DNA of 64,000 nucleotides from an uncultured Clostridia bacterium (GTDB lineage: Bacteria; Bacillota; Clostridia; Christensenellales; UBA1242), in the NCBI GenBank assembly GCA_937896905.1, contig CALBOE010000006.1:382232-446231 (forward strand), read 5' to 3'. Position numbers and translations under genes: made by a program. Positions within the stretch are counted from its first letter, which is position 1, and every line of letters starts with the position of its first letter. Shown one piece after another: positions 21,006-40,902 of the stretch. The notes below the pieces were generated by a model. It was not told the DNA's origin. It made no database searches and was given only the letters and a program-made list of their open reading frames with translations.

Positions 21006-21947
21006 ATGGAAGAAGTTAAAGTTTCGGTTATTGTTCCAATTTATAATGTAGAAAAATATTTAAAACGCTGTGTTGATAGTATTATAAATCAAACATACAA
21101 AAACTTAGAAATCATTTTGGTTAATGACGGAAGTCCAGATAACTGTCCACAAATGTGCGACGAATTTGCAAAACAAGACAGTAGAATTAAGGTTGTTCAT
21201 AAGCCAAACGGCGGAATTAGTTCTGCAAGAAATGCAGGATTAAAAATGGTTACGGGTGAATATTTTTGCTTTGTGGATAGCGACGATTGGCTACATAAAC
21301 AGAATGTGGAAGCACTTATGTTTGCAGTAAACAAGCATAAGTCCGATTTAACTGTGGCAGACTTTTTAATAGCGTATGACGATGAGACTTACGAGGAACA
21401 GGAAATAACATCTTTCGAATGCGAATGCAACGAAAACAAATTTAAATACTATGCCAAGTATTTAACGTCACCTTGGAACAAACTATATAAAACTGCAACA
21501 TTTAAGGATTTACATTATCCAGATGGGCGAGTGTATGAAGATGCTCACGTGGCACCATGGCTTTTTGAAACTGCGGAAAAAATTTCGTTAGTGAAAAATA
21601 AATTATACTACTATTTTCAAAGACGAAATAGCATAATGGGCTCTTTAAAACAAAAATTTTTCGAAAGTTACATTTATGAAATGTACGAAAATCAAATTAA
21701 AACCAATCAATTTATAGATATTAAAAAACATGCATTAATGTGTATGTTAACTTGCTACACGCACGATAGATTTATTGCCTTAATGTTTAAAAACAAACAG
21801 AAAGCAAACGAATTTAAAAACAAAATTAAAGAAACAAAAAGAAAACATATAAAACTTTATAGAATGAACAGTTTTAAAAATAAAACAAGTTACTATAAAG
21901 CAAAATTGAAAATATTGTTATATAAATTTGGTATGTTTAGAAAATAA
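21006..21947 (+). CDS. Glycosyltransferase family 2
   Basis: 'VSVIVPIYNVEKYLKRCVDSIINQ', 'NDGSPD', 'VDSDDW'. N-terminal half is paralogous to the 18991 gene. Confidence 0.88.
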   Translation: MEEVKVSVIVPIYNVEKYLKRCVDSIINQTYKNLEIILVNDGSPDNCPQMCDEFAKQDSRIKVVHKPNGGISSARNAGLKMVTGEYFCFVDSDDWLHKQNVEALMFAVNKHKSDLTVADFLIAYDDETYEEQEITSFECECNENKFKYYAKYLTSPWNKLYKTATFKDLHYPDGRVYEDAHVAPWLFETAEKISLVKNKLYYYFQRRNSIMGSLKQKFFESYIYEMYENQIKTNQFIDIKKHALMCMLTCYTHDRFIALMFKNKQKANEFKNKIKETKRKHIKLYRMNSFKNKTSYYKAKLKILLYKFGMFRK

Positions 21948-24296: not shown

Positions 24297-24343
24297 TGGA
24301 GCTGATAACGGGAATCGAACCCGTGACCTCCACCTTACCAAGG
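24297..24343 (-). pseudogene. 3' half of a tRNA-Thr(GGU) gene (position 30 to CCA), distal att remnant of the island
   Basis: Minus strand reads CCTTGGTAA-GGTGG-AGGTC-ACGGG-TTCGATT-CCCGT-TATCAGC-T-CCA. No D-arm or 5' acceptor adjoins it. Acceptor strand TATCAGC pairs perfectly with GCTGATA of the 5' halves at 39811-40008. Confidence 0.9.
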
Positions 24344-24376
24344 AAATCCATAATAGAAAAGGGTAATACATCACAT

Positions 24377-24407
24377 CAAAAAACCACCTATTTTTAAGGT
24401 GGTTTTT
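24377..24407. terminator. Bidirectional terminator at the island's left end (ends the GNAT/Fic operon)
   Basis: AAACCACCT (24381-24389) pairs with AGGTGGTTT (24397-24405), flanked by A-run and T-run. Confidence 0.75.
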
Positions 24408-24497
24408 GCTATTCCAAAATACATTTCCATACAAACCAAAACTAAAAGTGTTGCAAAAGTATGGAGTAGGGGTATTTTAATGCAAATAATAGGGGTT

Positions 24498-24971
24498 TTA
24501 ACCCAATTTTTCTTCGTTATACCATTTCATACCAGCACCAACATCTTCGTTAGGTCTAGATTTAAAACCAAATCTTTCATAGAAACTTTCACGGTCTTTG
24601 CTCGCGTTTAAATATAAGAATGTATCATCATCCTGGATTGACTTGTACCAATTAACAATTTCACCAATAATGATCGATCCAAATCCTAAACCTTGAAATG
24701 CTTTATCCACAACAACATCATAAATTGTGAAATAAGAACCATCTCCAACAACTCTGCCCATACCAACAATAATATTATCTAAATACAAACTTACCGCAAA
24801 TGTTGAATGTTTTTTATTTTTAGAAACTCTTTTAACACTTCTTTCCCAATCAACACTATTAAATAGTTTTATAAATTCCTTATTGCTAGGCATAGAATAT
24901 TTTACCACAACAGTTTTAACCAATGCTGGTTCAACTTTATCATTATAAACAACAATCTTTTTAGTTTTCAT
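24498..24971 (-). CDS. GNAT family N-acetyltransferase
   Basis: 'VVVDKAFQGLGFGSIIIGEIVNWY' acetyl-CoA binding motif (Q/RxxGxG), 'FYERFGF'. Confidence 0.85.
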   Translation of the reverse strand: MKTKKIVVYNDKVEPALVKTVVVKYSMPSNKEFIKLFNSVDWERSVKRVSKNKKHSTFAVSLYLDNIIVGMGRVVGDGSYFTIYDVVVDKAFQGLGFGSIIIGEIVNWYKSIQDDDTFLYLNASKDRESFYERFGFKSRPNEDVGAGMKWYNEEKLG

Positions 24972-24979
24972 AACAACTC

Positions 24980-25882
24980 CTAATATTTAACTTGGAAATA
25001 ATCCAATAATCTTTTGTATAGGTCTTGTCCAAATCTGCAAGTTTCAATTAAATAGTTTTTATCAATATTCCATTCTTTAAGTCCACGGTAGTATTCAACT
25101 TTGTAATTGTCATCAATGTAGAAAGGAACGATGTTGTTTTTCAAACATTCTTTAAATGCGATAAGGCGACCAACTCTTCCGTTTCCATCTTGGAATGGGT
25201 GGATATTTTCAAAACGATAGTGGAATTCCACAATATCTTCAAAGGTTACATGTTTAATTGAGTTGTACCAGGTTAATAGTTTTTTCATTTCACTTTCAAC
25301 TTTATTTGGTTGAGTTGTTTCAATGCCACCAACAGTATTAGGTAAAACTTTATATTTGCCAGCACCGTACATCTTTGAATGTTCCGTTCCTTCTTTTAAA
25401 AAGTATTGAAGATTGGTAATTAATCTTTCGCAAAGTTCTGCTTCTGCAAAATCGATAATATAGTCCACGCATTTAAAGTGATTATTGGTTTCAATGATAT
25501 CATCTAGGTTGATATTAGAAGGTAAGTTGCCAATGGTCTTAGTTTCAAAGATATAACGTGTTTGGTCTTCTGTTAATCTGCTACCTTCAATGTGATTAGA
25601 ATTGTAGGTTAATTTGATTTGAGTTTCGTGGTACAATCCGTTTCCTAATTTAAACATTTTTTCATTACGAAGAGTTTGGAGAATGTGGTTCACTTCCAAC
25701 ACATCTTCAAAAGAAGCATCTAAGTAAATCAATATCTTACCAACAACAGAGTCGTTAATATCTTCGCCTTTACTGATTTTAGCAATGGTGCGAGAAGAAA
25801 TGCCCAATGTTTCACATAATGCTGATTTTTTTATGCCCTTTCTTTTAAGTAACTCATTAAATTTTTGCTCATTAATGATCAT
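24980..25882 (-). CDS. HTH (XRE-type) + Fic domain protein (AMPylase family, class II with internal inhibitory motif)
   Basis: Start moved to the ATG at 25882 (GGAG RBS). HTH 'KKSALCETLGISSRTIAKISKGE'. 'SNHIEG' = [ST]xxxE[GN]. Fic motif 'HPFQDGNGRVGRL'. Confidence 0.9.
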   Translation of the reverse strand: MIINEQKFNELLKRKGIKKSALCETLGISSRTIAKISKGEDINDSVVGKILIYLDASFEDVLEVNHILQTLRNEKMFKLGNGLYHETQIKLTYNSNHIEGSRLTEDQTRYIFETKTIGNLPSNINLDDIIETNNHFKCVDYIIDFAEAELCERLITNLQYFLKEGTEHSKMYGAGKYKVLPNTVGGIETTQPNKVESEMKKLLTWYNSIKHVTFEDIVEFHYRFENIHPFQDGNGRVGRLIAFKECLKNNIVPFYIDDNYKVEYYRGLKEWNIDKNYLIETCRFGQDLYKRLLDYFQVKY

Positions 25883-25892
25883 ATAAACTCCT

Positions 25893-25981
25893 AAATCTTT
25901 ACTTATATTATCATATTGTTTCAAAAAAGTAAAGATTTTAAGTAAAATTATTAAAAAAAGTAAAGATTTTAGTCTTTACTT
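25893..25981. promoter_or_regulatory. Four copies of AAGTAAAGA(T/C)T in alternating orientation (candidate operator upstream of the HTH-Fic gene)
   Basis: Inverted copy at 25893-25904, direct copies at 25927-25938 and 25958-25969, inverted copy at 25973-25981. Confidence 0.5.
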
Positions 25982-26214
25982 AAAAATAGTTTTTTGCATA
26001 ACTTATAGGTTATTTCGATTGCCTTATCTATCTCAATGCAAGATAGGGCACTTTTTTCTAAATCAATATTAAAGTATTCTCGCCATTTTTCTTTTGAAAA
26101 CTCTTTGGTAAAAGCATCTTCAAGTTCGCAGATTTTTTTCAGTTGCAATTTCTCTTCTGCCGACATGGGTTCTTGGTCTAGCACTTCGTGAACCAATTCA
26201 ATTATTTGTTTCAT
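25969..26214 (-). CDS. Small hypothetical protein (81 aa)
   Basis: Helical and acidic. N-terminus 'MKQIIELV' parallels the neighbouring 77-aa protein 'MNKIIDLV'. Confidence 0.5.
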   Translation of the reverse strand: MKQIIELVHEVLDQEPMSAEEKLQLKKICELEDAFTKEFSKEKWREYFNIDLEKSALSCIEIDKAIEITYKLCKKLFLSKD

Positions 26215-26218
26215 AATG

Positions 26219-26452
26219 CTACCTCAAGTCAAACACATCTTTGCAAACATTGTAGGTATGAATGATATGCTCATCAATATCAAGTTTATGTAATTTATAA
26301 ATTTGTTCCAACAATTCATTAAACAATGTTGCCTGGTTTTCTGTGAAAGTGGAAGTTAAATTCTCCTTGATATGCTGAATTGTGATGCTTTGTTCAAAAT
26401 ATTTGTGAGAATTTTTAAAACTTAAACCTACAAGATCAATAATTTTATTCAT
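26219..26452 (-). CDS. Small hypothetical protein (77 aa), paralog-like to the 25969 gene
   Basis: GGAGG RBS. Similar size and N-terminus to the neighbour. Contains 'STFTEN'. Confidence 0.5.
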   Translation of the reverse strand: MNKIIDLVGLSFKNSHKYFEQSITIQHIKENLTSTFTENQATLFNELLEQIYKLHKLDIDEHIIHTYNVCKDVFDLR

Positions 26453-26542
26453 AAGACCTCCTAAAAGTGTTTGTGTTGTACCGTACTTTCAATTCTTTTG
26501 CAAGTGTTTTTTAGTTAAAATTTCACTGTGCGTAGAAAAAGA

Positions 26543-26764
26543 ACATACACTACATACACTTCCTACACTAAAAAGCACACAATTACCTATAAATAAGGCT
26601 AAAACTCAACAAAATGAAACATTATACCAACATACACCTAACATACACTAATATACACTCAACATACACTAAAAAATTAGCAAAAACATGGAAAACAACA
26701 AAGTATCCCAACGCATTTATACACTTATACATAATTACATCAAAAGTGTATGTAGTGTAGGGTG
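26543..26764. repeat. Array of ACATACAC(T)-type 8-9 bp repeats in a divergent intergenic region
   Basis: Direct copies at 26543, 26552, 26562 (CCTACACT), 26630, 26641, 26651 (ATATACAC) and 26662. Inverted copies in AAGTGTATGTAGTGTAGG at about 26744-26761. Confidence 0.8.
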
Positions 26765-26851
26765 TTTTCTTACGCAAATTATAAAAGTTTATAAAAATGC
26801 AATACAAATCGAATAAATTATGCTATAATTATACCATTAGGAGATTATACA

Positions 26852-27616
26852 ATGGAAAAAGCAGGTGTAATTTATATTTTAACCAATCCATCATTCCCAG
26901 AATATGTGAAAATTGGTTACGCAGATGATGTTAATAAAAGATTGGCTCAATTAAACAGAAGTGAGTGCATTCCTTTTGCGTTTAGAGTTTATGCAACTTA
27001 TGAGGTGAGTTCTAGGTTATCAGATTTGAAAATACATGAGATCATTGACAAACTAAATCCAAACTTAAGATCAATCGATAATTTTGAGGGTAAAAAAAGA
27101 GTAAGAGAGTTTTATGCAATGACTAAAGAAGATGCCTACTTTATCTTAGAAGCAATTGCTGAGATTCATGGATGTACAGATAAACTAAAAAGAATTCAAC
27201 CAACAAAAGATGAACAAGTTGATGAAGAAATTGCTGAAAGAATTGAAACCGAAACTGGAATACGTAGAGGTAATGATCCTATAACTAAAGAAGAATATTT
27301 ATCAGCAAAGAAGGTTGATATGGTAAATCTATATAAAAAGATAGAGCAACGATTACAAGAAGAATTGCCAGAATATGAAGAATATATTTTACCTCAATAT
27401 ATTGGTTTAAAGAAAAATGGGAAATATTTTGCAGAATTTCATTTGCAACAAAATAAAATTCAAATAATGACTTTATTGCCAGATGGAAAGTATTCATTAG
27501 GAAACAAAGTTCCAGATAACTTTTTGTGGACTTTAAAATATAGAATTTACATGTCTAATGAAAAAGAAATAGAAGAATTGATAAGTATAATAAAAGAATC
27601 TTACAATAAAAGATAA
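26852..27616 (+). CDS. T5orf172 (GIY-YIG-like) domain protein
   Basis: 'GVIYILTNPSFPEYVKIGYADDVNKRLAQLN'. TGCTATAAT extended -10 and AGGAG RBS upstream. Confidence 0.78.
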   Translation: MEKAGVIYILTNPSFPEYVKIGYADDVNKRLAQLNRSECIPFAFRVYATYEVSSRLSDLKIHEIIDKLNPNLRSIDNFEGKKRVREFYAMTKEDAYFILEAIAEIHGCTDKLKRIQPTKDEQVDEEIAERIETETGIRRGNDPITKEEYLSAKKVDMVNLYKKIEQRLQEELPEYEEYILPQYIGLKKNGKYFAEFHLQQNKIQIMTLLPDGKYSLGNKVPDNFLWTLKYRIYMSNEKEIEELISIIKESYNKR

Positions 27617-27623
27617 TAATTTA

Positions 27624-27654
27624 AAAAGCAGTAAATCTAATTACTGTTTTTTTT
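27624..27654 (+). terminator. Rho-independent terminator
   Basis: CAGTAA (27629-27634) pairs with TTACTG (27641-27646), followed by T8. Confidence 0.65.
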
Positions 27655-27697
27655 ATTTATTAAAATCACTTGTTTTTTTATTTTTTATATGTTAAAC

Positions 27698-27727
27698 TTA
27701 GACTAAATTTAAACTATATTTAGACTA
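27698..27727 (+). promoter_or_regulatory. Two direct TTAGACTAA repeats 21 bp apart (candidate operator of the R-M operon)
   Basis: TTAGACTAA at 27698-27706 and 27719-27727, directly upstream of the RBS/ATG of the AbrB-like gene. Confidence 0.5.
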
Positions 27728-27738
27728 ATGGAGTTGAA

Positions 27739-27927
27739 ATGATAATTAAAAAAAATGTGATATATCAGAAGGATAGGAGAATACGATTGCCAGAACAAAT
27801 TGAAAACAATTTGGGTTGGATAGGGGGAACAACAAACTTAGATATTATAATAGATAAAAATAAAATCATAATACAAAAATCAAAAGAAATAAAACCAAAC
27901 AATTATGGTAAAAAGGAGAAAATATAA
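27739..27927 (+). CDS. AbrB/SpoVT/MazE-fold small DNA-binding protein (putative controller of the R-M operon)
   Basis: 'DRRIRLPEQIENNLGWIGGTTNLDIIIDKNKIIIQK' fits the looped-hinge-helix pattern. TAATG overlap with the next gene. Confidence 0.6.
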   Translation: MIIKKNVIYQKDRRIRLPEQIENNLGWIGGTTNLDIIIDKNKIIIQKSKEIKPNNYGKKEKI

Positions 27928-30371
27928 TGGCAGTAGAAGAACATGTTAAAGGATTAATGACAAATAAAATTATTAATACTGAAGGATATCCGTCGATGCA
28001 AGACAAATTGTCAAAAGAAGGAGTCGTTTGGTATAAAGAAGAAAGTTATCAAAAAATAAATCCTAAAATTGAGGCTATGTTAAGCACGGCATCAAAATCC
28101 TTAAAAGGCAATAAACCAGGAACTCCTGATTTCATGATAGAAACCCCTTCTTTTTATATAGTTATTGAAGCTAAGGGAATAGAAAAAGGAAATAAACATA
28201 AACATAGTAGATTTGCCGATGTAACTAAATATATTAAAAGGTCTGCAACAAGAGATGATGAGGTATATGATACTGCTTCAATTACAAATAGAGAATGTGC
28301 AATTGATGAGGCTCTTTATTATGCAACATTTTTAAATTTTGAAAAAGATGTGATTGCTATAGCAGTGTCAGGTACTGAGAAAGATTCAGATTTTAGATTT
28401 ACTTCTTTCTTGTTGCCTAAAGGGCAAAATTTGTCTCAAATTTCACTTATAGAGGACGGTGGGTTAAGCGGCACATTTAATACTGTCGAAAATTATAAAA
28501 GAGAAATTTACAAGGCATATGGTTATGAAGAAAGGTTGTATAGAGCGATTTACGAAGATTTGAGAAAATACGCAGATGCTTCAGCTAAATTTTTGAATAC
28601 TAACGGAGTTGATGAAAATGACAGATTAGGTTTAGTGTCTGCAATAGTTTTGGCTTTGACAAATAAAAAATCTGATTTATTTAAAAAGGTTTATAGTAAT
28701 TCAAAGTTGGATATTTCACCAGAGGAAATAAAAAACGCTTTACTATCAGAAAATCAGCCGTTAGGAGTTGTGATTGAAGATAAACTTCCTGCAGAAAAAA
28801 GAAATACTCTAAAAGCCTATTTCAATGCACTGCTAGATAAACCGTTTTTGACAAGGAAAATAAAAAGTAAAGATGGAAAAGAAGTTAATACAAAGAATTT
28901 TTTTGAAATAAATAAAGGTTTTACGGATAGTATATTATCCAGATTAACATATTCTCTCTATGAATTTATTGTCAAGGTTTACGACCAATATCAAAACAGT
29001 AATATTGATGTTATGGGGTCTTTTTATTCTTTGTTTTTGCAATATGCAAAAGCGGACGTTAAGAAAGGAGTGGTATTAACACCAAAACATATTACAGAAC
29101 TGTTTTGTGATTTGGCTGAGTATTATCTTGGTAAAAAATTAAATCATAAAACACAAATTTTAGATATATGTACAGGATCTGGAGGGTTTTTAATTTCAGC
29201 ATTAAATAGAATTGATTTTAATATCGATAATGATAAATCTTTAAATTTATCTCAAAAAAAGGATGCAAAAAACGAGGCCAGAAAAAACTGCTTATTGGGA
29301 ATTGAATTAAAAGATTCTATGTTTGTTCTCGCCTATGCCAATATGAGGTTTCACAAAGATGGCAAATCATCATTATATCACGGTTCTTCGTTGTATAATG
29401 ATGCTGAAAAACTTGCGGACGGTTTAACTTTTCATGAAATCATTTCAAAAAATTATAAAGGAGAAGAGTTGTTAGATGATGACCAAAAAGTTCAGTTATG
29501 TGGCCCAGAAATAGGGATGATGAATCCTCCCTATGAAGAAGATGTTTTTGAATTTATAGATTCAATGCTTAAATATTTACGCAAAGGCGGAATTGGAATA
29601 GCAATAGTACCAATTAATACTCAAGGTGTAAATAGCGAATTAACAGACAAAAAGAATAATCTTTTAAAAAATAATACATTATTGGCTAGTATATTAATGC
29701 CACCAGATTTATTTAATGGAGTTAGAGGGTCTGGAGCTGCAACATCTACATGCATATTAGTTTTTAAGGCTCATAGTCCACACGAAGATTTCCTTGATAA
29801 TGGTGGATTAACATATTTAGCCGATTGGTCTGCTGATGGATTTAAATTAATTCCAAAACACGGAAGATTTGAAATAGATGATAAGTGGCACAATAAAAAT
29901 GATGGATATAAAAAACTATATATTGAAAATCTTAAAAGACAAATGGCTGAGCAGGATTATATTCTATCATCAGACTATAAGAAAGACATTCATAAAGAAG
30001 GATCTATAAAATCTATAAGAAAGCCTATTCATAAATTCGATCATATTGAAACACTGATAAAAAAAGACTCAAAAGGAAATATTATTTATAAGAAAAACAA
30101 GGTTGAAAGATTGGATAAAGATGGGAAAGAGATGTATAATAAAAAAGGAGTTAAGCTATATAATATAGAAACGGCTTTAGATGCTAATGGAGATCCTATA
30201 CCAGAAGTTGAAGAAAAAGAAATATATATCAATGAGGATTGGAATATTCTTGATTATATAAAAACTGATTATAATGAATTAAAACCTGAAAATTTTATTA
30301 AAAATATGCTAGACTATAATTTGTATATTTATATGAAAGAAAATGATTTGTTGGTCGACAAGGAGGATTAA
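27927..30371 (+). CDS. Fused restriction endonuclease / N6-adenine DNA methyltransferase (BcgI-A-like, Type IIB/IIG)
   Basis: N-terminal PD-(D/E)xK 'TPDFMIETPSFYIVIEAKG'. MTase motif I 'ILDICTGSGGFLISAL'. Motif IV 'GMMNPPYEED'. Lys-rich C-terminal extension. Confidence 0.8.
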   Translation: MAVEEHVKGLMTNKIINTEGYPSMQDKLSKEGVVWYKEESYQKINPKIEAMLSTASKSLKGNKPGTPDFMIETPSFYIVIEAKGIEKGNKHKHSRFADVTKYIKRSATRDDEVYDTASITNRECAIDEALYYATFLNFEKDVIAIAVSGTEKDSDFRFTSFLLPKGQNLSQISLIEDGGLSGTFNTVENYKREIYKAYGYEERLYRAIYEDLRKYADASAKFLNTNGVDENDRLGLVSAIVLALTNKKSDLFKKVYSNSKLDISPEEIKNALLSENQPLGVVIEDKLPAEKRNTLKAYFNALLDKPFLTRKIKSKDGKEVNTKNFFEINKGFTDSILSRLTYSLYEFIVKVYDQYQNSNIDVMGSFYSLFLQYAKADVKKGVVLTPKHITELFCDLAEYYLGKKLNHKTQILDICTGSGGFLISALNRIDFNIDNDKSLNLSQKKDAKNEARKNCLLGIELKDSMFVLAYANMRFHKDGKSSLYHGSSLYNDAEKLADGLTFHEIISKNYKGEELLDDDQKVQLCGPEIGMMNPPYEEDVFEFIDSMLKYLRKGGIGIAIVPINTQGVNSELTDKKNNLLKNNTLLASILMPPDLFNGVRGSGAATSTCILVFKAHSPHEDFLDNGGLTYLADWSADGFKLIPKHGRFEIDDKWHNKNDGYKKLYIENLKRQMAEQDYILSSDYKKDIHKEGSIKSIRKPIHKFDHIETLIKKDSKGNIIYKKNKVERLDKDGKEMYNKKGVKLYNIETALDANGDPIPEVEEKEIYINEDWNILDYIKTDYNELKPENFIKNMLDYNLYIYMKENDLLVDKED

Positions 30372-30373
30372 TA

Positions 30374-31525
30374 ATGAATTTAGAGACAAACAAATGGAAA
30401 AGGTTTTATATTAGAAATTTATTTGAATGCATGCAGTCTAAGGGGGATAATCAGGCGAAAGATTTAGAAGAAGGACAAATTCCTTTAGTTTCTGCAGGTA
30501 GTTTAAATAATGGAATTGTAAAATACATAGAAGAAGGTGATGGTGTAGCGGAGATTTTTGAAGCTGGTTGTATTACTGCGGATATGTTTGGCAAGTGTTT
30601 TTATCAGCCTTTTGATTTTTATGCGGTTTCACATGGAAGAATTAACATTTTAAGACCAAAACATAAAGAAATTAATGAAAGAGTATCTTTATTTTTAATC
30701 AATGTTATGGAACATGAATTTAGATTAAAATATTCTTATAATAGAATGTTGTCTCTTGAAAAATTGTTAAAAGAATCAATATGTTTGCCTTGTGGGTGTA
30801 ATGGTAATCCAGATTGGAATTATATGGAAAAATATATTGATTACTTATATAATACTTCTGTTAATAATCAAATAGAAAGAATTATTAAAATTTCAAATAA
30901 TGATAGAAATACAATTCAAAACATTTCCGGCAAAATAAATGCTGAAGATTTTAATTCTTGGGCTAATATAAAAGAACAAGATCCTGTTGATCTAAATACA
31001 GTGAATTGGAAAACTTTTAAAATAGGAAAATTGTTTACTACTTATACTGGTGGAGATTTAATACTTGGAAATGTTGAAGAAGGAGATATCCCTGTTGTTA
31101 CACATTCAGCTAAGAACAATAGTATTTCCGTATACACAAATGAAATTTCTGGAAGAAAACTTTTTGATCATAGAAACACTATAAGTTTAGCTGATAGGGG
31201 AACATTTTTTGCGACAATACAGCCAGAGGATTTTTATATAGGAACTAGGGTTAAAGCACTTGAATCTAAAAACAGTGATATAACAAAAAAAGCATTGATG
31301 TTTATTGCTTCAATAATTAATCTTGAAAGCTTTAGATTTAACTATGGAAGAAATTGCACGGGAGGTTTAGATAATCTAACAATTAAGTTACCTGCCCAAA
31401 TGAGTGGGGCTAAATATATTTTAGATAAAGATTGTAAATATTCATCAAAGGGATTTATTCCTGATTGGAGATTTATGAATTTATATATAGATGCATTACC
31501 ATATAGTTTAAAAATTATTAATTAA
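30374..31525 (+). CDS. R-M specificity subunit (HsdS / BcgI-B-like, two target-recognition domains)
   Basis: Two TRD halves each opening with 'W+(K/T)F.I..LF' ('NKWKRFYIRNLFE' and 'VNWKTFKIGKLFT'). Separated from the upstream gene by a 2-nt gap. Confidence 0.85.
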   Translation: MNLETNKWKRFYIRNLFECMQSKGDNQAKDLEEGQIPLVSAGSLNNGIVKYIEEGDGVAEIFEAGCITADMFGKCFYQPFDFYAVSHGRINILRPKHKEINERVSLFLINVMEHEFRLKYSYNRMLSLEKLLKESICLPCGCNGNPDWNYMEKYIDYLYNTSVNNQIERIIKISNNDRNTIQNISGKINAEDFNSWANIKEQDPVDLNTVNWKTFKIGKLFTTYTGGDLILGNVEEGDIPVVTHSAKNNSISVYTNEISGRKLFDHRNTISLADRGTFFATIQPEDFYIGTRVKALESKNSDITKKALMFIASIINLESFRFNYGRNCTGGLDNLTIKLPAQMSGAKYILDKDCKYSSKGFIPDWRFMNLYIDALPYSLKIIN

Positions 31526-31534
31526 ACCATTGTT

Positions 31535-31561
31535 AGAACGGATTAATTATCCGTTCTTTTT
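31535..31561 (+). terminator. Rho-independent terminator (copy 1 of a repeated hairpin)
   Basis: AGAACGGA (31535-31542) pairs with TCCGTTCT (31550-31557), followed by a T-run. Confidence 0.8.
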
Positions 31562-31629
31562 ATTAGTTTTAAGAAAACTTATTTACTTGTACGAATTTTA
31601 TGTTATAATATAGAAAACATGGAGATAAT

Positions 31630-32571
31630 ATGGCTTTTATAGATACATATAAACGAATAATGAAAGAAGGTTATGAAAAAATAGTTTATTCATACGATAA
31701 GACAGTTGGAAGATATGAATATAGACCTTTTTCACATGCCAATACTGTCACTTGGAAAGAAGACATTGTTGAGGTACTTATAAATAATCTTCTTAATTAT
31801 TGCTATGAGCCCAATGAAATAGGAGCAATATATAATCCAAATTTTCCAGAATTAAGAAAGTATATAAATAAAGCAATTAAAGACAGATTAAACAGAAAAA
31901 CTAAACAAGCTCAACAAGATGGGTTATGTGGTGAATTGTTAATAGATTTAATATTAAGGATGGAAAATGAGAACAATGAAATCTTGATATGCAGACCCAA
32001 ATATCAACAATTAGGTGCGATAGCTGAATTAAAAAATTATGATGTTTTAATGTTTAGAGCAGAGTTTAATAATAATATTACACTGATTTTAGGACAAGTG
32101 AAATCGGGAGGGTTTGATTATTGCACAAAAAATATGAAAGTAGACTTAGATACTAAATATAATGAAACATATTTTGGTAATGCGGTGTGTTATATTGCGG
32201 ATCGTCGAATTTCAGATGTTCCTAATAAAATTTTACTCAATATTATATCAGATTTAAATAGTATTGCGTTAGGAACAGATGATACTAATATACGAAATAC
32301 TAAAATTTGTGAGTATATAAAAAAGAATGACATCAAGATTGAAATACCGTGTCTTTTGCTGTATGGCAAAGAGTCTGTTTATTCTGATATAAATAAATTA
32401 AAAGAAAATTTGGACGAAGAAGTAGAATGTGTAAAACAATTTTTCGATGAACTATCTTTTAATATTTATGATTTTAATTTTTCAATTATTTTTTATGTAT
32501 TTCCTTCTAAAAGTATAACAGAATTAAGAAAAAGCATTATGGAGTATAAAGTTGAGGTGTTGAATGGATAA
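31630..32571 (+). CDS. HamA-like putative nuclease (Hachiman-type effector candidate)
   Basis: 'GELLIDL', 'NYDVLMF' and 'LGQVKSG' are arranged like an E...D...(E/Q)xK nuclease core. 8-nt overlap with the downstream helicase. GGAG RBS and extended -10 TGTTATAAT upstream. Confidence 0.55.
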   Translation: MAFIDTYKRIMKEGYEKIVYSYDKTVGRYEYRPFSHANTVTWKEDIVEVLINNLLNYCYEPNEIGAIYNPNFPELRKYINKAIKDRLNRKTKQAQQDGLCGELLIDLILRMENENNEILICRPKYQQLGAIAELKNYDVLMFRAEFNNNITLILGQVKSGGFDYCTKNMKVDLDTKYNETYFGNAVCYIADRRISDVPNKILLNIISDLNSIALGTDDTNIRNTKICEYIKKNDIKIEIPCLLLYGKESVYSDINKLKENLDEEVECVKQFFDELSFNIYDFNFSIIFYVFPSKSITELRKSIMEYKVEVLNG

Positions 32572-34981
32572 ATATATTGTACGAAACTTTATAGAATCAC
32601 TGAACAATTTTGATGGATCTGACGAAGGAAGGGAAATATTAAAAAATCATGTATGTTATATTTCAGAGCATAAAAACGAGATTGAAAAGACTTACCCAAT
32701 TGATGAATTGTTACATATTGCATCGCAAAAGCTTAAAGTTTTTGGTTATGATGAAATGAATAAAATTACTGCCATTGAGTTGTCAGATACATCTAGCATT
32801 GTTGATAACGCTGTTAAGAAATATCACGAATCTACAATGTCTTCAGAGAAAGAAAATGTTATATTAGATGGGCTGCAAAAGAACATTATAGACGAATATC
32901 AAAAACTTCAAAATAGAAGAATTATGGTGTCAGCCCCTACATCATTTGGCAAATCATATTTGTTGCAAGAGATACTTTATAACAATGCTCAAGAATATGA
33001 AAATGTTATGCTTATATTGCCAACAATTGCTTTATTAAATGAAAATGTTAATAAATATCAATCATTAATAAAAAAAGGAAAACTGGATTATAACATAGTG
33101 TCAACCAACTACGAAGACTTAAACATTAATTCTAGAAATCTATTTATATTTACTCCAGAAAGAGCTTTGAAATTTTTAGGCAAATATGATGTAAAAATTA
33201 ACTTTTTCTTCTTTGATGAGGTTTATAAAATCGAAGAGAGATTAGATATAACAAAAGATGTTAAATCTGGAGATGATGTTATAAGTGGAAATGATAAAAG
33301 AGCTGCGGCATTTAGAACATGTTTGTACTTGCTTGCCAAATCAGTAAAAGATTATTATATTGCTGGACCGTTTTTGGATTTGGAGAATAAAAAATGTGTT
33401 GGTTTGAGGAAGTTTTTAACTAATAATTTTGTTCAAATATTTCAAGTCAAGTTTGATCCTACACTAAGAATTACATATGATGCTTGGAAACTTGGTGATA
33501 TAACGGAAAATAATTTCGTTATTCCTGAAGTTAGATCATATAAAACACGATTAGATCAGCAAAACCAAATTGGAAAGTTGGAACGAATTAAAAAATTTAT
33601 TGATGAACACGATCTTGGTAAAACAATAGTATATATAAATTACCCATCGAAAATTGTTGAAATATTAAAGGTGGCTAAAATTTTTGATAACCAGCCATTA
33701 AAAAATAAAGAGCTTGAAGAATTTATAATTCATTTGAAATCTAAATATAACGTAAATATGAACGGGATTTCTAGCGTAGAATATTGGACCTTAATCAAAT
33801 GCTTAGAATTCGGTATTGGTATACATCATGGTAAGATGCCAAAGTATATACAAAACGAAATTTTAAGACAATTTAATAGACCAGATGGTTTGAATTATTT
33901 GTTTTGCACTTCAACAATTATAGAAGGTGTAAACACTGTAGCTAAGAATGTTGTAATGTTGTCAAATAGTCATGGATCTGGCGATATGAAAAAATTTGCT
34001 TTTAAGAATATTAAAGGTCGTGCTGGACGATATTACTCTAGTTTTATAGGTAATTTATTTTATTGTGATGCGGATCAGAAGAAACTTGATGATTCAGAAT
34101 ATATGCATCTTGAATTTTTAAATTATGGAGAGACTCCATTATTGCCAATTGATTTAGACAATACTGAAAAAGAAGATTTATCAAAGAATAACCATTATGA
34201 AAAAATGAAAAGAGAAAATAAATATAATAAAGATTTATTACCTGATGAGGTTTTCTATCAAAACAGATTATTTGATAGGTTAGAGCAAGAACAAATATTG
34301 AAAAAAATACTAAGTGAAGATAATTTTGACAGGCTATATGAGTTAACTCAAAAAGTAATAAGTCGTGGATTAAGTTTTTTAGCGTTGGTGAGAGAGGTTT
34401 TAAATTTAGAAGAAAATCTTCTTTTAGGTGATTCATTTATAACTCAGTCGGAGGATAGACAAAAAGAGATATTGAAAAAATATAAAACCAAACTTTATTA
34501 TATTTTGAAAGAATATGAGCAAGAAGGCTTTTCTGGATTATTAAAATATCAAATGCGACTGTCTAAATATTCAGATGAACTAAAGCAAGATATGGACAAT
34601 AAATACAATATTGTATTTGAACAAATAAGAACAACCATAGAATACGACATTCCTAAATATCTCAGCTTATATCAATCATTATTTAATCATGCTTGTAAGA
34701 TTAAAGACAAGGTTTTCGGGAATGGCGATCTTGATGATGTTATAAAATATTATGAAATTGGAGCATCTAATGACTTTGGTAGATTGTTAATAGAAAGAGG
34801 GTTTCCTAGCGAATCGGCTAAGATGATTGAATTTGAACTAAGAAAGACTCATATTGATTTTTTAAATAATGATAAGGTAATTCAGTATATAGATCAAACT
34901 CCAAATATAATTGCACATCTTGACGGATACGAAAAGAGATTGTATACAAGAATAATAGATTTATATAGAAAAGAAAAATAA
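32564..34981 (+). CDS. SF2 helicase (HamB-like)
   Basis: Motif I 'SAPTSFGKS', Ia 'LILPTIAL', II 'FFDEVY', V 'TSTIIEGVN', VI 'IKGRAGR'. Long helical C-terminal region. Confidence 0.75.
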   Translation: MDKYIVRNFIESLNNFDGSDEGREILKNHVCYISEHKNEIEKTYPIDELLHIASQKLKVFGYDEMNKITAIELSDTSSIVDNAVKKYHESTMSSEKENVILDGLQKNIIDEYQKLQNRRIMVSAPTSFGKSYLLQEILYNNAQEYENVMLILPTIALLNENVNKYQSLIKKGKLDYNIVSTNYEDLNINSRNLFIFTPERALKFLGKYDVKINFFFFDEVYKIEERLDITKDVKSGDDVISGNDKRAAAFRTCLYLLAKSVKDYYIAGPFLDLENKKCVGLRKFLTNNFVQIFQVKFDPTLRITYDAWKLGDITENNFVIPEVRSYKTRLDQQNQIGKLERIKKFIDEHDLGKTIVYINYPSKIVEILKVAKIFDNQPLKNKELEEFIIHLKSKYNVNMNGISSVEYWTLIKCLEFGIGIHHGKMPKYIQNEILRQFNRPDGLNYLFCTSTIIEGVNTVAKNVVMLSNSHGSGDMKKFAFKNIKGRAGRYYSSFIGNLFYCDADQKKLDDSEYMHLEFLNYGETPLLPIDLDNTEKEDLSKNNHYEKMKRENKYNKDLLPDEVFYQNRLFDRLEQEQILKKILSEDNFDRLYELTQKVISRGLSFLALVREVLNLEENLLLGDSFITQSEDRQKEILKKYKTKLYYILKEYEQEGFSGLLKYQMRLSKYSDELKQDMDNKYNIVFEQIRTTIEYDIPKYLSLYQSLFNHACKIKDKVFGNGDLDDVIKYYEIGASNDFGRLLIERGFPSESAKMIEFELRKTHIDFLNNDKVIQYIDQTPNIIAHLDGYEKRLYTRIIDLYRKEK

Positions 34982-34984
34982 CAT

Positions 34985-35013
34985 AGAACGGACTAACCAT
35001 CCGTTCTTTTTTT
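34985..35013 (+). terminator. Rho-independent terminator (copy 2 of the repeated hairpin)
   Basis: AGAACGGA (34985-34992) pairs with TCCGTTCT (35000-35007), followed by T7. Near-identical to 31535-31561. Confidence 0.8.
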
Positions 35014-35270
35014 AATGCTGTTTTTTACGAAATTTGGATAAAAAACGAGTTTTGCAACAAAAGTCGATACAATCGTGAGAAACTTTGCAACACTTTTGAA
35101 ACAAAATGGATAACCAAACTCGTATAATATATGTAGGCATACAATTAAAAATTTAGAAAAGCATTTTACAAATTTAAAAATAGAGACAATCTGAGAAAAT
35201 AAGAGACACTCTGATAAGAAATGAGACAACCAAACCTATATAATGATTGTAAGGAATCAAATTGCCGAAG

Positions 35271-35298
35271 AGAGAAGTTAAAAACACTTCTCTTTTTT
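35271..35298 (+). terminator. Orphan rho-independent terminator in non-coding DNA
   Basis: AGAGAAGT (35271-35278) pairs with ACTTCTCT (35286-35293), followed by T6. No ORF lies between it and the previous terminator. Confidence 0.7.
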
Positions 35299-35310
35299 AC
35301 TGAAAAAATA

Positions 35311-35626
35311 GTTTCGAATGGACAAATGCTGTCCGAACGGAATTTATAAAATATTAAAAAATATTTCCTGCTGTAAAAAATGTGTTTACAACGGGGTTAT
35401 TAAAATTTATTTGCAACTTGTTCAAATGGTGAACACATTGGCCTTGTACAATGTTTTCCGATACGACAAATGTTGTCGGAACGGGATTGTTTAAATTGTG
35501 AAAAAATATTCCCGCTATATCAAATGGTGATACAGCGGGCTTGGTAAAATAACAGAAAATTTTATAAAAAAGTTGTAAAAATATGTCCCGTGTGGTCAAA
35601 TGGTGAACACACGGGATTGATAGAAT
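35311..35626 (+). repeat. Six hairpins with a conserved CA-AATGN-TG apex, within ~100-bp degenerate direct repeats
   Basis: Hairpins at 35320-34 (GGACA AATGC TGTCC), 35367-95, 35420-34 (GTTCA AATGG TGAAC), 35464-78 (CGACA AATGT TGTCG), 35511-39 and 35587-615. Confidence 0.85.
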
Positions 35627-35743
35627 GTGGTTACCAATAACAATATTGGTTTTATCGATGGACTGCAGCCGTCGTTAAAATATAGCTAAAGTTAAGAACT
35701 GATCAATCTTAATGTAGGCACAAAATCTAAAAAAGGAGAAAGG

Positions 35744-36403
35744 ATGAGAAATTATATATTTGAATTTGATCAACAAATTGCCTTAAGGTTAGGGCTTAAA
35801 CTTAATGAACTTTTATTTCTAGATTACTTGGCGAAATTTATTAACAGTGGGAGTATGAGATGTAAGTGTATAGAAGGTAAAAGATATTATAGATTAACCT
35901 ACAAAAAGGTAATGGAAGATTTGCCAATTTTGAAAATAAAAGAAAGGCAACTTCGCAACATTATTATTTCGTTAGAAAATAAAGGAATATTACAAAGGTA
36001 TTCTGAGTTGAAAAATGAAATGCATATTTATGTGGATTATGATGTGCTTTTCGGCAACAAATTGCCAGATAAGTTTAACTTGTCGGAAGTTGGCTTCCAC
36101 GATGAAGGAAATGGACTGCTTACAATAGATTATTATGATATTAAAAAAATAAAAATATTAAATAATAGCGCACGCGTGAAAGAAATTGATAAGCAAGAGT
36201 TGTTCAATCATTTATTAGCAAACTTAAAATTGGCGTACGGGGATGTTCTATATAAAGGATTTATTGAAAATAAACTTGATATAGATGAAATAACTGATAC
36301 TTATATTTTGTTTGATATAGGAAATGTCAAAATAGTTGGACAAACTTATGGTGATAAATTTAAGAAAGCATTTGATGACACGATTGAACACTTATTAAAT
36401 TAA
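35744..36403 (+). CDS. Putative replication initiator / winged-helix protein (RepA_N- or DnaD-like N-terminus)
   Basis: 'LNELLFLDYLAKFIN...GKRYYRLTYKKVMEDLPILKIKERQLRNIIISLENKGILQR' follows the RepA_N-type wHTH pattern. AAGGAGAAAGG RBS. Confidence 0.5.
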   Translation: MRNYIFEFDQQIALRLGLKLNELLFLDYLAKFINSGSMRCKCIEGKRYYRLTYKKVMEDLPILKIKERQLRNIIISLENKGILQRYSELKNEMHIYVDYDVLFGNKLPDKFNLSEVGFHDEGNGLLTIDYYDIKKIKILNNSARVKEIDKQELFNHLLANLKLAYGDVLYKGFIENKLDIDEITDTYILFDIGNVKIVGQTYGDKFKKAFDDTIEHLLN

Positions 36404-36897: not shown

Positions 36898-37155
36898 ATG
36901 AGATATAACGAAGAACTAAACCAAAAGCAATTAGCAGATTTAGTCTCAATAGAAACCAAAAGATTGTGTGAAAAATACAATAAAGATTTTCTGGATTGTG
37001 AGGACTTAATCAAAATAACAAACTTGGGGAGAGATAATGTTCGTGCAATGATGCATAGAAGAGATTTCCCATTGTTAAAAATCGGTAGAAGAAATGTTGT
37101 AAATATCAGTAGTTTTGCTTACTGGTGTATTAAACAAACATATAAGGAGATGTAA
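36898..37155 (+). CDS. xis: Excisionase-family / MerR-like HTH DNA-binding protein
   Basis: 'DLIKITNLGRDNVRAMMHRRDFPLLKIGRRNVVNISSF'. Immediately upstream of the integrase (2-nt gap). GGAG RBS. Confidence 0.7.
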   Translation: MRYNEELNQKQLADLVSIETKRLCEKYNKDFLDCEDLIKITNLGRDNVRAMMHRRDFPLLKIGRRNVVNISSFAYWCIKQTYKEM

Positions 37156-37157
37156 AA

Positions 37158-38360
37158 ATGGCAAAAAGGAAAGCAACACGCCGTGGAAACGGAGAGGGTT
37201 CAATATGGCAAAGACCAGATGGTAGATGGCTTGGACAAATATCACTTGGTTACGATGAAGAAGGAAAACTTAAAAGAAAGACATTTTATGGAAAAACAAG
37301 AAGTGAAGTTTCGCTTAAAATGACATCCGAATTGAGTTATATAATGAAAAACGGATATCAAACAGTGTGTAAAGAAAAATTTGAAACAATATTTATGGAG
37401 TGGTTGTTGGTGTTTAAAAGGAACACAGTTCAAGCAAGAACATTTGAAAGAATACTAAGCAATGCAAAAACACATGTTATACCAGAACTTGGTAAATATG
37501 GTTTAGATGAAATCAATATGCAAGCCATACAAAAAATGATAAACAGATTATACCTAAAAGAGTTGTCTCTAGATGTGATTAAGAAATCAAAGCAAATAGT
37601 TGGACAGTTCTTTGAATATGCAATAGATAACGAAATGGCAATTAAAAATCCAACAGCAAAAATAAAAATTCAAAAAAGAGAGAAGCATATTGAAGATGCA
37701 CAAAGATACAAGGCAATTCCACCAGATAAAAGAGATGAGTTTATAAAAGCATTAGATAGTCAAACAATTCTCAAACCAATGTGCTTGGTTATGATGTGCT
37801 GTGGGCTAAGAATTGGAGAAACATTAGCACTAACTTGGAGAGATGTGGATATTGAAAGAAAGTTAATACATATAAACAGAGCGATAACAGTAGATGTTAA
37901 GATGGATAAATTAGGAAATGTGCTATCAAGAAAAACAGTTATAGGCGACACTAAAACAGCGTGTTCGGTAAGAATTGTGCCTGTGCCAGATAGTTTAATT
38001 CCTGTCCTTGAAGCTTGGAAAGAAGATAGATGGATTGAGGGCAAGAAACACAATGTTGACTTGCTTGCACCAGATAGCCTTGTGTTTGGCAAATATGATG
38101 GTGGAATTAGAACTTATAGAAACACACAAAACATATTCGATAGGTTCTGCAAACAAAATGGATTTGATAAACTAGGATTACACATACACGGACTTAGACA
38201 AACATATTCAAATATGCTATTCGAAAAAAGTGTAAATCCAAAAGTTATTCAAGGCCTACTTGGCCACAAAGACGTAAAGACAACAATAATGAACTACAAC
38301 TCAGTGGATAAATCATACTTCGATAGAATTTCAAACTTAATAAACGAACAATTTAAATAA
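37158..38360 (+). CDS. int: Tyrosine recombinase / phage-type integrase with N-terminal arm-binding domain
   Basis: 'GNGEGSIWQRPDGRWLGQISLGYDEEGKLKRKTFYGKT' arm-type domain. Catalytic 'GLRIGETLALTWRDVD', 'HGLRQTYSNMLF', 'LLGHKDVKTTIMNY'. Confidence 0.93.
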   Translation: MAKRKATRRGNGEGSIWQRPDGRWLGQISLGYDEEGKLKRKTFYGKTRSEVSLKMTSELSYIMKNGYQTVCKEKFETIFMEWLLVFKRNTVQARTFERILSNAKTHVIPELGKYGLDEINMQAIQKMINRLYLKELSLDVIKKSKQIVGQFFEYAIDNEMAIKNPTAKIKIQKREKHIEDAQRYKAIPPDKRDEFIKALDSQTILKPMCLVMMCCGLRIGETLALTWRDVDIERKLIHINRAITVDVKMDKLGNVLSRKTVIGDTKTACSVRIVPVPDSLIPVLEAWKEDRWIEGKKHNVDLLAPDSLVFGKYDGGIRTYRNTQNIFDRFCKQNGFDKLGLHIHGLRQTYSNMLFEKSVNPKVIQGLLGHKDVKTTIMNYNSVDKSYFDRISNLINEQFK

Positions 38361-38364
38361 AAAT

Positions 38365-38402
38365 AAAAAAGATTGGTTGAAATATACCAATCTTCTTTTT
38401 TA
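38365..38402 (+). terminator. Rho-independent terminator after int
   Basis: AAGATTGGT (38369-38377) pairs with ACCAATCTT (38386-38394), followed by a T-run. An extended -10 TGCTATAAT follows. Confidence 0.7.
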
Positions 38403-38435
38403 TATGCTATAATAGAAACGTACAAAGGAGTAATA

Positions 38436-39470
38436 ATGTCTATTGAATTACTTTTAGATAAGAAGATAACAAAAAACAAATTTAAAACATCAGAAAGAAA
38501 AATTATAAATATTAACAAAATAAAAGGTAATGAAAATTATGTGCTTTGCATTAATACCGAAATTTCAAATAATGAAGATGCGAAATTTTATTTATCAAAG
38601 TTAGATGAAATAGTTAAAATTGTTGAATTAAATGGAGCTAATTATACTATTGTAACAAATGAACCAAGTTGTTTTTTGCTAAAGAATCTATATCCATTAT
38701 GTCAATCATTTGAAAGTAAGTTAAGAAAGTTTTTACAAATAGCTCTATGCGATACTCAAGATATTCTAACTGAAGCATATGATGAATTAAAGAAAGAGGT
38801 AATAAAAAAAATCCCTGAAGGTAAAATCAATAGAGATAATTCAATTTTGGAATATTCTGATTTGTCAAATATTTTCACTTTCCTTTTTTCAGATAAAGAA
38901 GCTGTAGAAACTATTAAAAGTGATATTTTAAAAAGAAATAATAATTGGAAAATTCATCAGGATTTAAAGAATATAAAGGATAATACAATTTGGAATAAAT
39001 GTTTTAAAAACAAATGTAAGTTTTTTAATTTTGATAAATATTATGTTGAATTATATAACTATAGAAATGATGTTATGCATTTTCATAATATATCATATAA
39101 GGAGTATATTTCTGCAAAAAAGATATTTGAAAATGCTATCAGAGAATTAGAGCTTGAATTAAAATCAAACATTGTATTAAAGGCAACGGAAATTTTAGAC
39201 AATAAACTGTTTGCGACCTACGCGATAGATAAATTAATAAATGAATTAGTCCATAATTATAGACATCATAATGAAATTCTTTTACCTTTGCTTAAAACTA
39301 TCAGTAATTCTAATTACTTTATAAATAATAATCTTAGAAATATTCCAATTTCTTTTAAATCAAATTTAGCTAATACTATCAATTTATTGTGTGATTTAAA
39401 ATTTATACGACATAATGCTATATTGCCAGATAATCAAGCAGTTTGTCACGACGACAAAGATAGAGAGTAA
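38436..39470 (+). CDS. HEPN-motif protein (Abi/Swt1-like, putative abortive-infection RNase)
   Basis: Start moved to the ATG at 38436 (AAAGGAG RBS). 'YNYRNDVMHFH' contains the Rx4H HEPN signature in a helical context. Confidence 0.5.
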   Translation: MSIELLLDKKITKNKFKTSERKIININKIKGNENYVLCINTEISNNEDAKFYLSKLDEIVKIVELNGANYTIVTNEPSCFLLKNLYPLCQSFESKLRKFLQIALCDTQDILTEAYDELKKEVIKKIPEGKINRDNSILEYSDLSNIFTFLFSDKEAVETIKSDILKRNNNWKIHQDLKNIKDNTIWNKCFKNKCKFFNFDKYYVELYNYRNDVMHFHNISYKEYISAKKIFENAIRELELELKSNIVLKATEILDNKLFATYAIDKLINELVHNYRHHNEILLPLLKTISNSNYFINNNLRNIPISFKSNLANTINLLCDLKFIRHNAILPDNQAVCHDDKDRE

Positions 39471-39693: not shown

Positions 39694-39769
39694 TGGAGCT
39701 TATGACGGGATTCGAACCCGTGACCTCAGCCTTACCAAGGCTGTGCGCTACCTGCTGCGCCACATAAGC
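39694..39769 (-). tRNA. tRNA-Thr (anticodon GGU), complete, CCA encoded
   Basis: Hand-folded cloverleaf: GCTTATG-TG-GCGC-AGCAGGTA-GCGC-A-CAGCC-TTGGTAA-GGCTG-AGGTC-ACGGG-TTCGAAT-CCCGT-CATAAGC-T-CCA. All stems are Watson-Crick. Confidence 0.93.
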
Positions 39770-40008
39770 ATATTGAAATTTTGATTGTTGGGATTTCTGC
39801 CAGGTAGACATTACCAAGGTGACGCTCTACCGACTGAGCCATATCAGCGTATTAAGATTTTTAATTGTTGGAATTTTAGCCAGGTAGACATTACCAAGGT
39901 GACGCTCTACCGACTGAGCCATATCAGCGTATTAAGATTTTTAATTGTTGGAATTTTAGCCAGGTAGACATTACCAAGGTGACGCTCTACCGACTGAGCC
40001 ATATCAGC
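39770..40008 (-). repeat. Three 80-bp tandem units, each the first 38 nt of a tRNA-Thr(GGU) plus a ~42-nt spacer
   Basis: 5' halves at 39811-39848, 39891-39928 and 39971-40008 are identical (minus strand GCTGATATGGCTCAGTCGGTAGAGCGTCACCTTGGTAA). Each is followed by TGTCTACCTGGC..., not by a tRNA 3' half. The spacer next to the full tRNA (39770-39810) is a diverged copy. Confidence 0.92.
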
Positions 40009-40700: not shown

Positions 40701-40902
40701 TTATAAAGATGTTGACGGAAAGAGTAGGCACAAAAAGGGCTTAAAGTGAGATAAGGATAGTGAGAACTTATTAGTACCGTTGTGTTGAAAGACGCTCCCG
40801 AGTCGTAGTTTAATATAAAGTGGTCATAAGTTTTATGGCAAATTAGGTGGCACCGCGGTTTATAATCGTCCTAATGCGTTTTGGCAGTTAGGGCGTTTTT
40901 TA
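40701..40902 (+). promoter_or_regulatory. T-box riboswitch leader (probable Asp specifier GAC) with terminator
   Basis: Stem I elements 'GAAAGAGTAG' and 'AGTGAGA'. Specifier-loop candidate 'TTGAAAGACG'. T-box sequence 'AAATTAGGTGGCACCGCGG' (40840-40858). Terminator CGTCCTAA (40867-74) / TTAGGGCG (40888-95) followed by T6. Confidence 0.85.

Follow-up and report, generated by a model that had tools for sequence, protein, structure and literature searches.

Stacked tRNA half-gene scars at a tRNA-Thr(GGT) locus of a Clostridia genome suggest serial insertion of defence islands into imported tRNA genes

We analysed a stretch of 64,000 nt, referred to here as the window, in which ARAGORN finds one complete tRNA gene, a tRNA-Thr(GGT) on the minus strand. 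Three tandem units, each consisting of a tRNA 5' half followed by a short spacer, lie directly upstream of this gene, and Tandem Repeats Finder reports the region as a period-80 array of 3.5 copies at 39732-40008 (score 433), an array that is not due to chance. Read along the minus strand, the features of the locus are as follows.

40057-40029, minus strand: host promoter-like site of sigma-70 type (TTGACT-17-TACAAT, with TG), some 20 nt ahead of the outermost scar
40008-39929, minus strand: scar unit 1, outermost; 5' half 40008-39971, 42-nt spacer 39970-39929
39979-39971, minus strand: core CCTTGGTAA within scar unit 1, terminating the 5' half
39928-39849, minus strand: scar unit 2; 5' half 39928-39891, 42-nt spacer 39890-39849
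39848-39770, minus strand: scar unit 3, innermost; 5' half 39848-39811, 41-nt diverged spacer 39810-39770
39769-39694, minus strand: complete tRNA-Thr(GGT), type B; called by ARAGORN, Rfam tRNA 73 bits
39740-39732, minus strand: core copy in the anticodon loop of the complete tRNA, the same as the scar core
39686-39670, minus strand: intrinsic-terminator-like hairpin and T run, directly 3' of the complete tRNA

The first 38 nt of all three units are the same sequence, GCTGATATGGCTCAGTCGGTAGAGCGTCACCTTGGTAA, which comprises the acceptor strand, D arm, anticodon-stem strand and anticodon loop of a tRNA with anticodon GGT. The initial annotation of this DNA had placed the repeat at 39801, 39881 and 39961, and the plus-strand starts of CAGGTAGACA reproduce these positions. 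Its exact 80-bp period holds for units 1 and 2, which measure 80 nt each, and fails for unit 3, which measures 79 nt. The base-for-base identity that it had noted for the outer pair is confirmed, as is its description of an inner unit with the same 38-nt 5' half and a diverged spacer, the spacer of unit 3 (41 nt) being 81% identical to that of the outer units (42 nt).

The 5' halves all end in the 9-mer CCTTGGTAA, which corresponds to the 7-nt anticodon loop plus two stem bases and occurs six times in the window, against 0.5 expected. Four of the copies lie in the array and the complete tRNA and one at the far end of the island described below (24335-24343), so that the locus holds five co-oriented cores in direct orientation; the sequences on either side of the 9-bp core diverge immediately. 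Neither ARAGORN nor Rfam calls a tRNA at the scar junctions, where the 5' half runs into non-tRNA spacer, and the 5' half of unit 1, which scores 36.5 bits against an nhmmer 5'-half model, is an orphan. A similarity of the window spacers to a decayed tRNA 3' half was considered and dropped as not significant (p about 0.013 and 0.26).

A search for promoters within the spacers found none. The site at 40057-40029 is the sole minus-strand promoter-like site close upstream of the array and complete tRNA, and one terminator-like site lies downstream; a TTGACT box in a comparable position and the terminator-like hairpin behind the complete tRNA are both present at the related loci L001 and L085. When folded inside the corresponding 361-nt precursor, the complete tRNA retains its acceptor, D and T arms, and the fold of the precursor is more stable than that of shuffled controls (z = -3.1).

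The second part of the locus lies at the other end of a 15.4-kb island with a G+C content of 27-31%, compared with 33-37% in its flanks, and comprises the following features.

24343-24297, minus strand: attR; core 24343-24335, displaced tRNA-Thr 3' half 24334-24297
24344-36403, strand not given: island cargo overall
24498-24971, minus strand: GNAT, island cargo
24980-25924, minus strand: Fic protein, PADLOC PDC-S04, island cargo
26852-27616, strand not given: T5orf172 protein, PDC-S57, island cargo
27927-31525, strand not given: type IIG/I-like methylase and specificity subunit, island cargo
31630-34981, strand not given: Hachiman HamA/HamB, island cargo
35744-36403, strand not given: 219-aa ORF with a weak replication-initiator match, island cargo
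36898-37155, plus strand: 85-aa ORF abutting the integrase gene, in a position conserved across the clade; only weak PHROG matches
37158-38360, plus strand: tyrosine integrase, 400 aa (Pfam Phage_integrase 1.1e-23, Phage_int_M, Phage_int_SAM_3)
38373-39470, plus strand: 365-aa ORF between integrase and tRNA, in a slot for variable cargo

Joined to the outermost 5' half, the 3' half 15.6 kb away gives a perfect 76-nt tRNA-Thr(GGT) cloverleaf. The window holds a single integrase and a single orphan 3' half (attR). The split tRNA, the integrase and the defence cargo together identify an integrase-borne defence island that has entered a tRNA-Thr gene at its anticodon loop. Set 41 nt in from the end of the island, the complete tRNA differs in sequence from the split one. 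The junction does not restore the split gene, and attP supplies no regenerating tRNA fragment. No phage structural or lysis genes and no relaxase domain are found in the window island, and a phage origin of the island was set aside because phage genes are absent. The 85-aa ORF may encode an excision or directionality factor. The 365-aa ORF has no family match in Pfam, PADLOC or PHROGs; elsewhere, the slot between integrase and tRNA holds two ORFs (148 and 186 aa) in L001, an Abi_C gene in L002 and no ORF in L085.

The same element is present in another host. Loci L085-L087, L089 and L092 were found through members of the 90% cluster of the window integrase. At these loci, the element carries an integrase 98.0% identical to that of the window, the same tRNA (76 of 76 positions), the same Hachiman genes and the same 219-aa and 85-aa ORFs, and the locus is syntenic, lying beside a T-box-controlled AspRS gene whose product is 78.6% identical to the window AspRS. 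A single scar is present in L085 and in each of four further assemblies, its 38-nt 5' half being identical to that of the window, and the 41-nt spacer of the L085 scar is 78% identical to the inner spacer of the window. Unit 3 of the window corresponds to this single scar and is therefore the ordinary attL junction of the present island, the outer two units being extra.

An integrase scan of genome contigs returned L001 only, a Candidatus Onthoplasma MAG of the Christensenellales with an integrase 98.2% identical to that of the window. The outer spacer of the window is 90.7% identical to the L001 element spacer and 76% identical to that of L085; as it is thus nearer the L001 than the L085 type, two element lineages are at work. 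The complete tRNA of L001 has exactly the 5' half that is found in the window scars. L001 has three scars, all different in both 5' half and spacer: the first combines a decayed, B-like 5' half with a spacer of 52 nt, the next is of a second type and the last of the A type. Against the 5'-half model, the L001 scars score 36.5, 27.5 and 15.4 bits, the outermost lowest. The spacer, which the initial annotation had named as a marker to be sought in other genomes, was found in related form in L001 and in the L085 group. Its junction 20-mer CCTTGGTAATGTCTACCTGG had no match in an exact scan of viral and metagenome contigs; records of the window-type spacer family are therefore limited to the window, L001 and the L085 group. 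An exact scan of viral contigs for CCTTGGTAAAACAAAAAYRGCAC gave no match either.

No empty-site strain of the same species or of a close relative was found, the nearest AspRS relatives (L006-L009) being 85% identical and having no tRNA at the locus. A related species, at L010-L014, has an intact tRNA-Thr(GGT) near AspRS, right behind the host promoter and free of scars, and represents the scar-free state of the same hotspot; L011 has a 464-aa integrase and no scar. Element-type terminators and variable islands were seen downstream of the intact tRNA in L010-L014 (for example, L011:5400-5700). The P0242 and P0247 contigs are too short or break inside the tRNA. A T-box leader lies upstream of the AspRS and AsnRS-like genes both in the window (40703-40876, plus strand) and in L001 (L001:3724-3919, plus strand); as a neighbour of the tRNA-Thr locus it is ordinary, and its position is conserved in L001 and L085.

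An alignment of the 400-aa integrase group was searched against metagenome and viral contigs, and loci found earlier were added. Eighteen Thr loci have, downstream of the integrase, a 5' half or P arm, the core, a 41-94-nt spacer, a complete tRNA-Thr(GGT) and a terminator. One scar is present at 10 of them, including L018, which has an additional older scar with a mutated core, and L026, with a second scar about 570 bp further out; two scars are present at L029 and L030, and three in the window and L001. At the remaining four loci (L002, L019, L023, L055), a foreign or own P arm replaces the 5' half, in tandem or circular forms, and these attP-type junctions (P arm, core, spacer, tRNA) carry no extra units. 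Two complete elements stand in tandem on one contig in L023 and L052.

The composition of L030 is informative as to the order of events. The 5' half of its inner scar is that of an L047-type element tRNA (37 of 37), and the spacer outside it is of the L047 class, whereas the inner spacer and complete tRNA of L030 belong to the L033 and L041 type. The locus was therefore occupied by an L047-type element, whose tRNA later took up an L033-type element. Outer scar copies with substitutions and indels were found in L001, L018, L035, L036 and L069. In the Thr loci L034, L037, L040 and L046, only a 3' half is seen, in junctions of P arm, core and 3' half, and these may be nested intermediates or ordinary attP forms.

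The stretch of about 570 bp between the two 5'-half scars of L026 (L026:3473-4042) holds a small cysteine-rich ORF and looks like an element remnant. At L045:7420-7700, a spacer and a degenerate B-type tRNA-Thr follow right after a tRNA-Leu(CAG), beside the core-like CTTAGTAA, and this arrangement may be a secondary-site insertion. P arms of different elements share repeats of TTGCTGTCAATTGCTGTCA or TGATGTCAACTGATGTCA (L002:15370-15420, L037:8560-8600, L046:2060-2110, L066:7800-7850, L071:7330-7390), which are probably arm-type integrase binding sites.

A sister clade of integrases with about 50% identity to the query (P0067, P0016) belongs to mobilizable elements with a MobL relaxase, which in these Ile-targeting elements adjoins the 85-aa ORF and int. 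At their loci (L065-L084), between one and three orphan 5' halves, repeated at intervals of about 100 nt, lie upstream of a complete tRNA-Ile(GAT). The core of this clade is TGATAA, and the replacement-tRNA layout recurs in 13 Ile loci. Example arrays are the following.

L069:5006-5300: Ile array with three scars, of spacer types a, b, a
L065:8935-9210: Ile array
L076:7550-7830: Ile array

The host flank and element of L076 and L082 are 100% identical, and the two loci differ by exactly one 100-bp unit, composed of an element-type 5' half and spacer. Among elements with an identical P0067 integrase, L066, L070 and L071 join three different foreign P arms at TGATAA, and the junctions continue into the 3' half of the resident's own tRNA and then its terminator, the tRNA 3' half and downstream sequence of L070 being a diverged variant. 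The arms of L066 and L071 contain TGTCAA-type repeats, as do other P arms of the clade. This is the form of junction predicted for another element integrated into the tRNA of the resident. Ile elements with identical integrases also differ in the spacer adjacent to the tRNA, which is of type a in L068 and L069 and of type b in L065, L067 and L072. Spacer type a (L065:9108-9170 and equivalents) contains a recognisable decayed tRNA-Ile 3' half, with T arm and acceptor strand (p < 0.0005 versus shuffles), a hint that the spacers originated in the 3' fragment that a classical attP carries. In L067:7650-7820, L075:7730-7840 and L077:7730-7840, a tRNA-Ile-like pseudogene precedes the Ile scars. Its 5' and 3' parts are separated at the anticodon loop by some 50-120 inserted nt, and an older insertion that has collapsed completely may account for it.

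We consider it likely that the window array consists of three stacked attL junctions at one chromosomal tRNA-Thr(GGT), formed by tyrosine-integrase islands that leave the gene they split unrepaired. The proposed attP would read P arm, 9-bp core CCTTGGTAA, 41-42-nt spacer, complete tRNA-Thr(GGT), terminator, cargo and int. Upon integration, the host 5' half would stay behind the host promoter, joined to the spacer and followed by the imported tRNA, while the host 3' half would be displaced to the far island end. Sequence comparison shows that the anticodon loop is the core, that the resulting junction is non-functional, and that the element brings along a complete tRNA in which both the anticodon and the core are preserved. 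Transcription of this imported tRNA would presumably start at the host promoter and run through the scars, with RNase P releasing the tRNA, and the host may come to depend on it. Since the imported tRNA has the same core, it would constitute a fresh attB. The next element would enter the imported tRNA, as the junctions show that elements of this family do, and the 5' half of that tRNA would become a further stacked scar. In the window, the outer two units would stem from one or two insertions of an L001-like element and the inner unit from the present, L085-like element with its type B tRNA. The older island bodies would subsequently have been lost, most likely through homologous recombination between near-identical (98%) tandem bodies or between repeated core-plus-3'-half junctions, or else through non-cognate attL x attR excision and a subsequent new insertion. 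Arrays vary between genomes in both unit number and composition, and stacking is a trait of the integrase clade across two tRNA targets. The scars themselves are probably without function.

Much of this scheme had been outlined in the initial annotation, which held that elements of this family carry a core, a spacer and their own tRNA, and this is borne out by the tRNA shared at 76 of 76 positions with L085 and by the layout of the 18 Thr and 13 Ile loci. Its further proposal that new copies enter the tRNA of the previous element agrees with the junctions of L066, L070 and L071 and with the scar composition of L030. The suggestion that each cycle of excision or deletion leaves an extra unit stands as regards the stacking but needs to be revised as to the step, as a new scar would arise at super-integration itself, with deletion or excision removing bodies only. 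Likewise, the array can be called a readable record of integrations only in part: identical units, such as the outer pair of the window and the extra unit of L076, can also be produced by slippage or by unequal exchange, either within the 50 shared bases or at the cores, so the unit number is not a strict event count, and since arrays can contract, the record is ordered but lossy. The expected copy-number variation at the syntenic locus was observed, with one unit in L085 and four further assemblies, three in the window and three different ones in L001.

Several other explanations have to be weighed against stacked integrations. The three units could go back to a single integration, with one attL scar multiplied locally by slippage or unequal sister-chromatid exchange. 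The outer units are indeed 100% identical, L076 and L082 differ by exactly one unit, and the 50 identical bases shared between units suffice for unequal exchange, such that a single unequal crossover in a two-scar array could give the identical pair; the second identical outer unit may be a duplicate of this kind. As an account of the entire array, local duplication is nevertheless improbable: the inner spacer is only 81% identical although the 38-nt 5' halves are identical, and drift would not have spared the latter; the outer spacer matches L001 over L085, which argues for two lineages; and the differing units of L001, L030 and L069 cannot be duplicates. A related concern is that the third copy results from short-read assembly expansion, the true locus having two scars, one per spacer type. 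Since about 210 bp are perfectly periodic at 80 bp, which exceeds a typical short-read length, the assembly may have miscounted the identical units, and related contigs often break inside the tRNA or array (L092, L096, L052). We regard such an expansion as rather unlikely, given that the window lies within a 486,911-bp contig, and it would change only the count, to two instead of three, and not the nature of the array; the independent multi-unit arrays with differing units in L001, L030, L065 and L069 cannot arise by collapse or expansion.

It is also conceivable that the array travels with the element, excision at the outer attL having carried the inner spacer and 5'-half units along in attP, so that no local history would be recorded. 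As every scar in the window has kept an intact core, excision between the outer attL and attR is formally possible, and the presence of spacer a or b in elements with identical integrases points to shuffling at the core. The same element, however, has just one scar in L085 and the four further assemblies, and the attP-type junctions L002, L019, L023 and L055 are devoid of extra units, which makes a travelling array as doubtful as purely local duplication. Least probable by far, and in our view very hard to sustain, is a function of the repeated 5' halves as RNA decoys, tRNA-half-like RNAs or an integrase-binding platform that tunes excision. Their location inside the presumed tRNA transcription unit and the stability of the precursor relative to shuffled controls would fit such a role, but their number, sequence and spacer type vary freely among genomes, and the outer copies decay in L001, L018, L035, L036 and L069, as unselected DNA would.

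The reading as stacked attL junctions combines two phenomena, replacement tRNAs and tandem accretion, each of which is already known. Replacement tRNAs are best described for the tRNA-dependent lysogeny of actinobacteriophages (Fionnbharth, Cluster L, Gaia; Guerrero-Bustamante & Hatfull 2024, PMC10865867), where mycobacteriophage integration at a short core (about 10 bp), in which the tRNA is not reconstituted and is complemented by a phage tRNA of the same isotype, was shown experimentally; the Lj965 prophage of Lactobacillus johnsonii is also mentioned, and the integration of a second plasmid using a plasmid's tRNA as attB is raised there as the authors' speculation only. Like these systems, the present one has a tyrosine integrase, an anticodon-loop core of about 8-10 bp and a host tRNA that is not rebuilt, and the window element carries a complete tRNA-Thr(GGT) (39694-39769) that is identical in another host. 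Unlike the actinobacteriophages, the elements described here are non-phage defence islands of gut Clostridia and, in the sister clade, mobilizable elements; their tRNA is only 41-64 nt from the attP core and so comes to stand right behind the host promoter. The imported tRNA has also served as attB time and again, with stacked scars as the result, a feature absent from the account in that paper. In vTRX32-1-like Rhizobium phages, a tRNA gene is interrupted and a complete replacement tRNA-Leu is supplied (PMC8631192). That phage tRNA lacks the 12-bp core, and the authors suggest that "super-integration" is thereby prevented, whereas the tRNA imported here keeps the core, and super-integration does occur, leaving a footprint.

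Tandem accretion has been described for ICESt1/CIME (Pavlovic et al. 2004, as cited in PMC3146451), for the Dehalococcoides ssrA islands, with many ssrA direct repeats (PMC3146451), and for tandem arrays of islands in Islander (PMC4383910). The likeness lies in serial site-specific integration, with several direct att repeats recording insertions at one locus. In those systems, however, every repeat marks the boundary of a complete island or cis-mobilizable element, and a 3' fragment serves to regenerate the target, whereas the 5' halves described here are 41-63 nt apart with no island between them, and the regenerated target is the whole imported gene. The tyrosine integrase, the anticodon-loop crossover and the co-oriented displaced fragment at the far end correspond to Islander sublocation "A" (PMC4383910); a classical attP fragment completes the split gene, while the present layout combines a dead 5' half with a separate complete gene. 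The initial annotation was aware of no account of such accreting att scars, and we likewise found no description of short stacked attL scars in the full-text literature searched, which takes in few subscription journals.

These findings extend the tRNA-replacement strategy to non-phage defence islands and mobilizable elements of gut Firmicutes, with at least two tRNA targets, Thr-GGT and Ile-GAT. They also suggest a new consequence of that strategy, in which the attachment site is regenerated by the imported tRNA and islands are inserted serially into one another. With a 9-bp anticodon-loop core and a self-contained tRNA, an element is freed from matching the acceptor and anticodon stems of its host, and this freedom may explain the presence of the same element in hosts whose AspRS differs by more than 20%. 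A broader reading, which could equally well prove right or wrong, is that this integrase clade of gut Clostridia possesses a portable, self-renewing attachment site that makes one locus endlessly reusable by succeeding islands, mostly of anti-phage defence, with the scars as an ordered log of visitors. If the site is indeed portable in this sense, the outermost scar would be the oldest visit, the visitor would be identified by the spacer type, and the 5' half would tell which tRNA the previous resident had carried.

In practical terms, a complete tRNA preceded by orphan 5' halves in tandem, all of one anticodon, forms a signature that could serve to locate hotspots, order insertions and correct annotation. 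Island finders that expect one displaced 3' fragment per island would misread such loci, and tRNA finders may call pseudo-tRNAs at scar arrays. Apart from the array, the window contains a direct repeat of 271 nt, 75% identical, at 18994-19264 and 21018-21288, the two copies lying 2 kb apart and outside the island.
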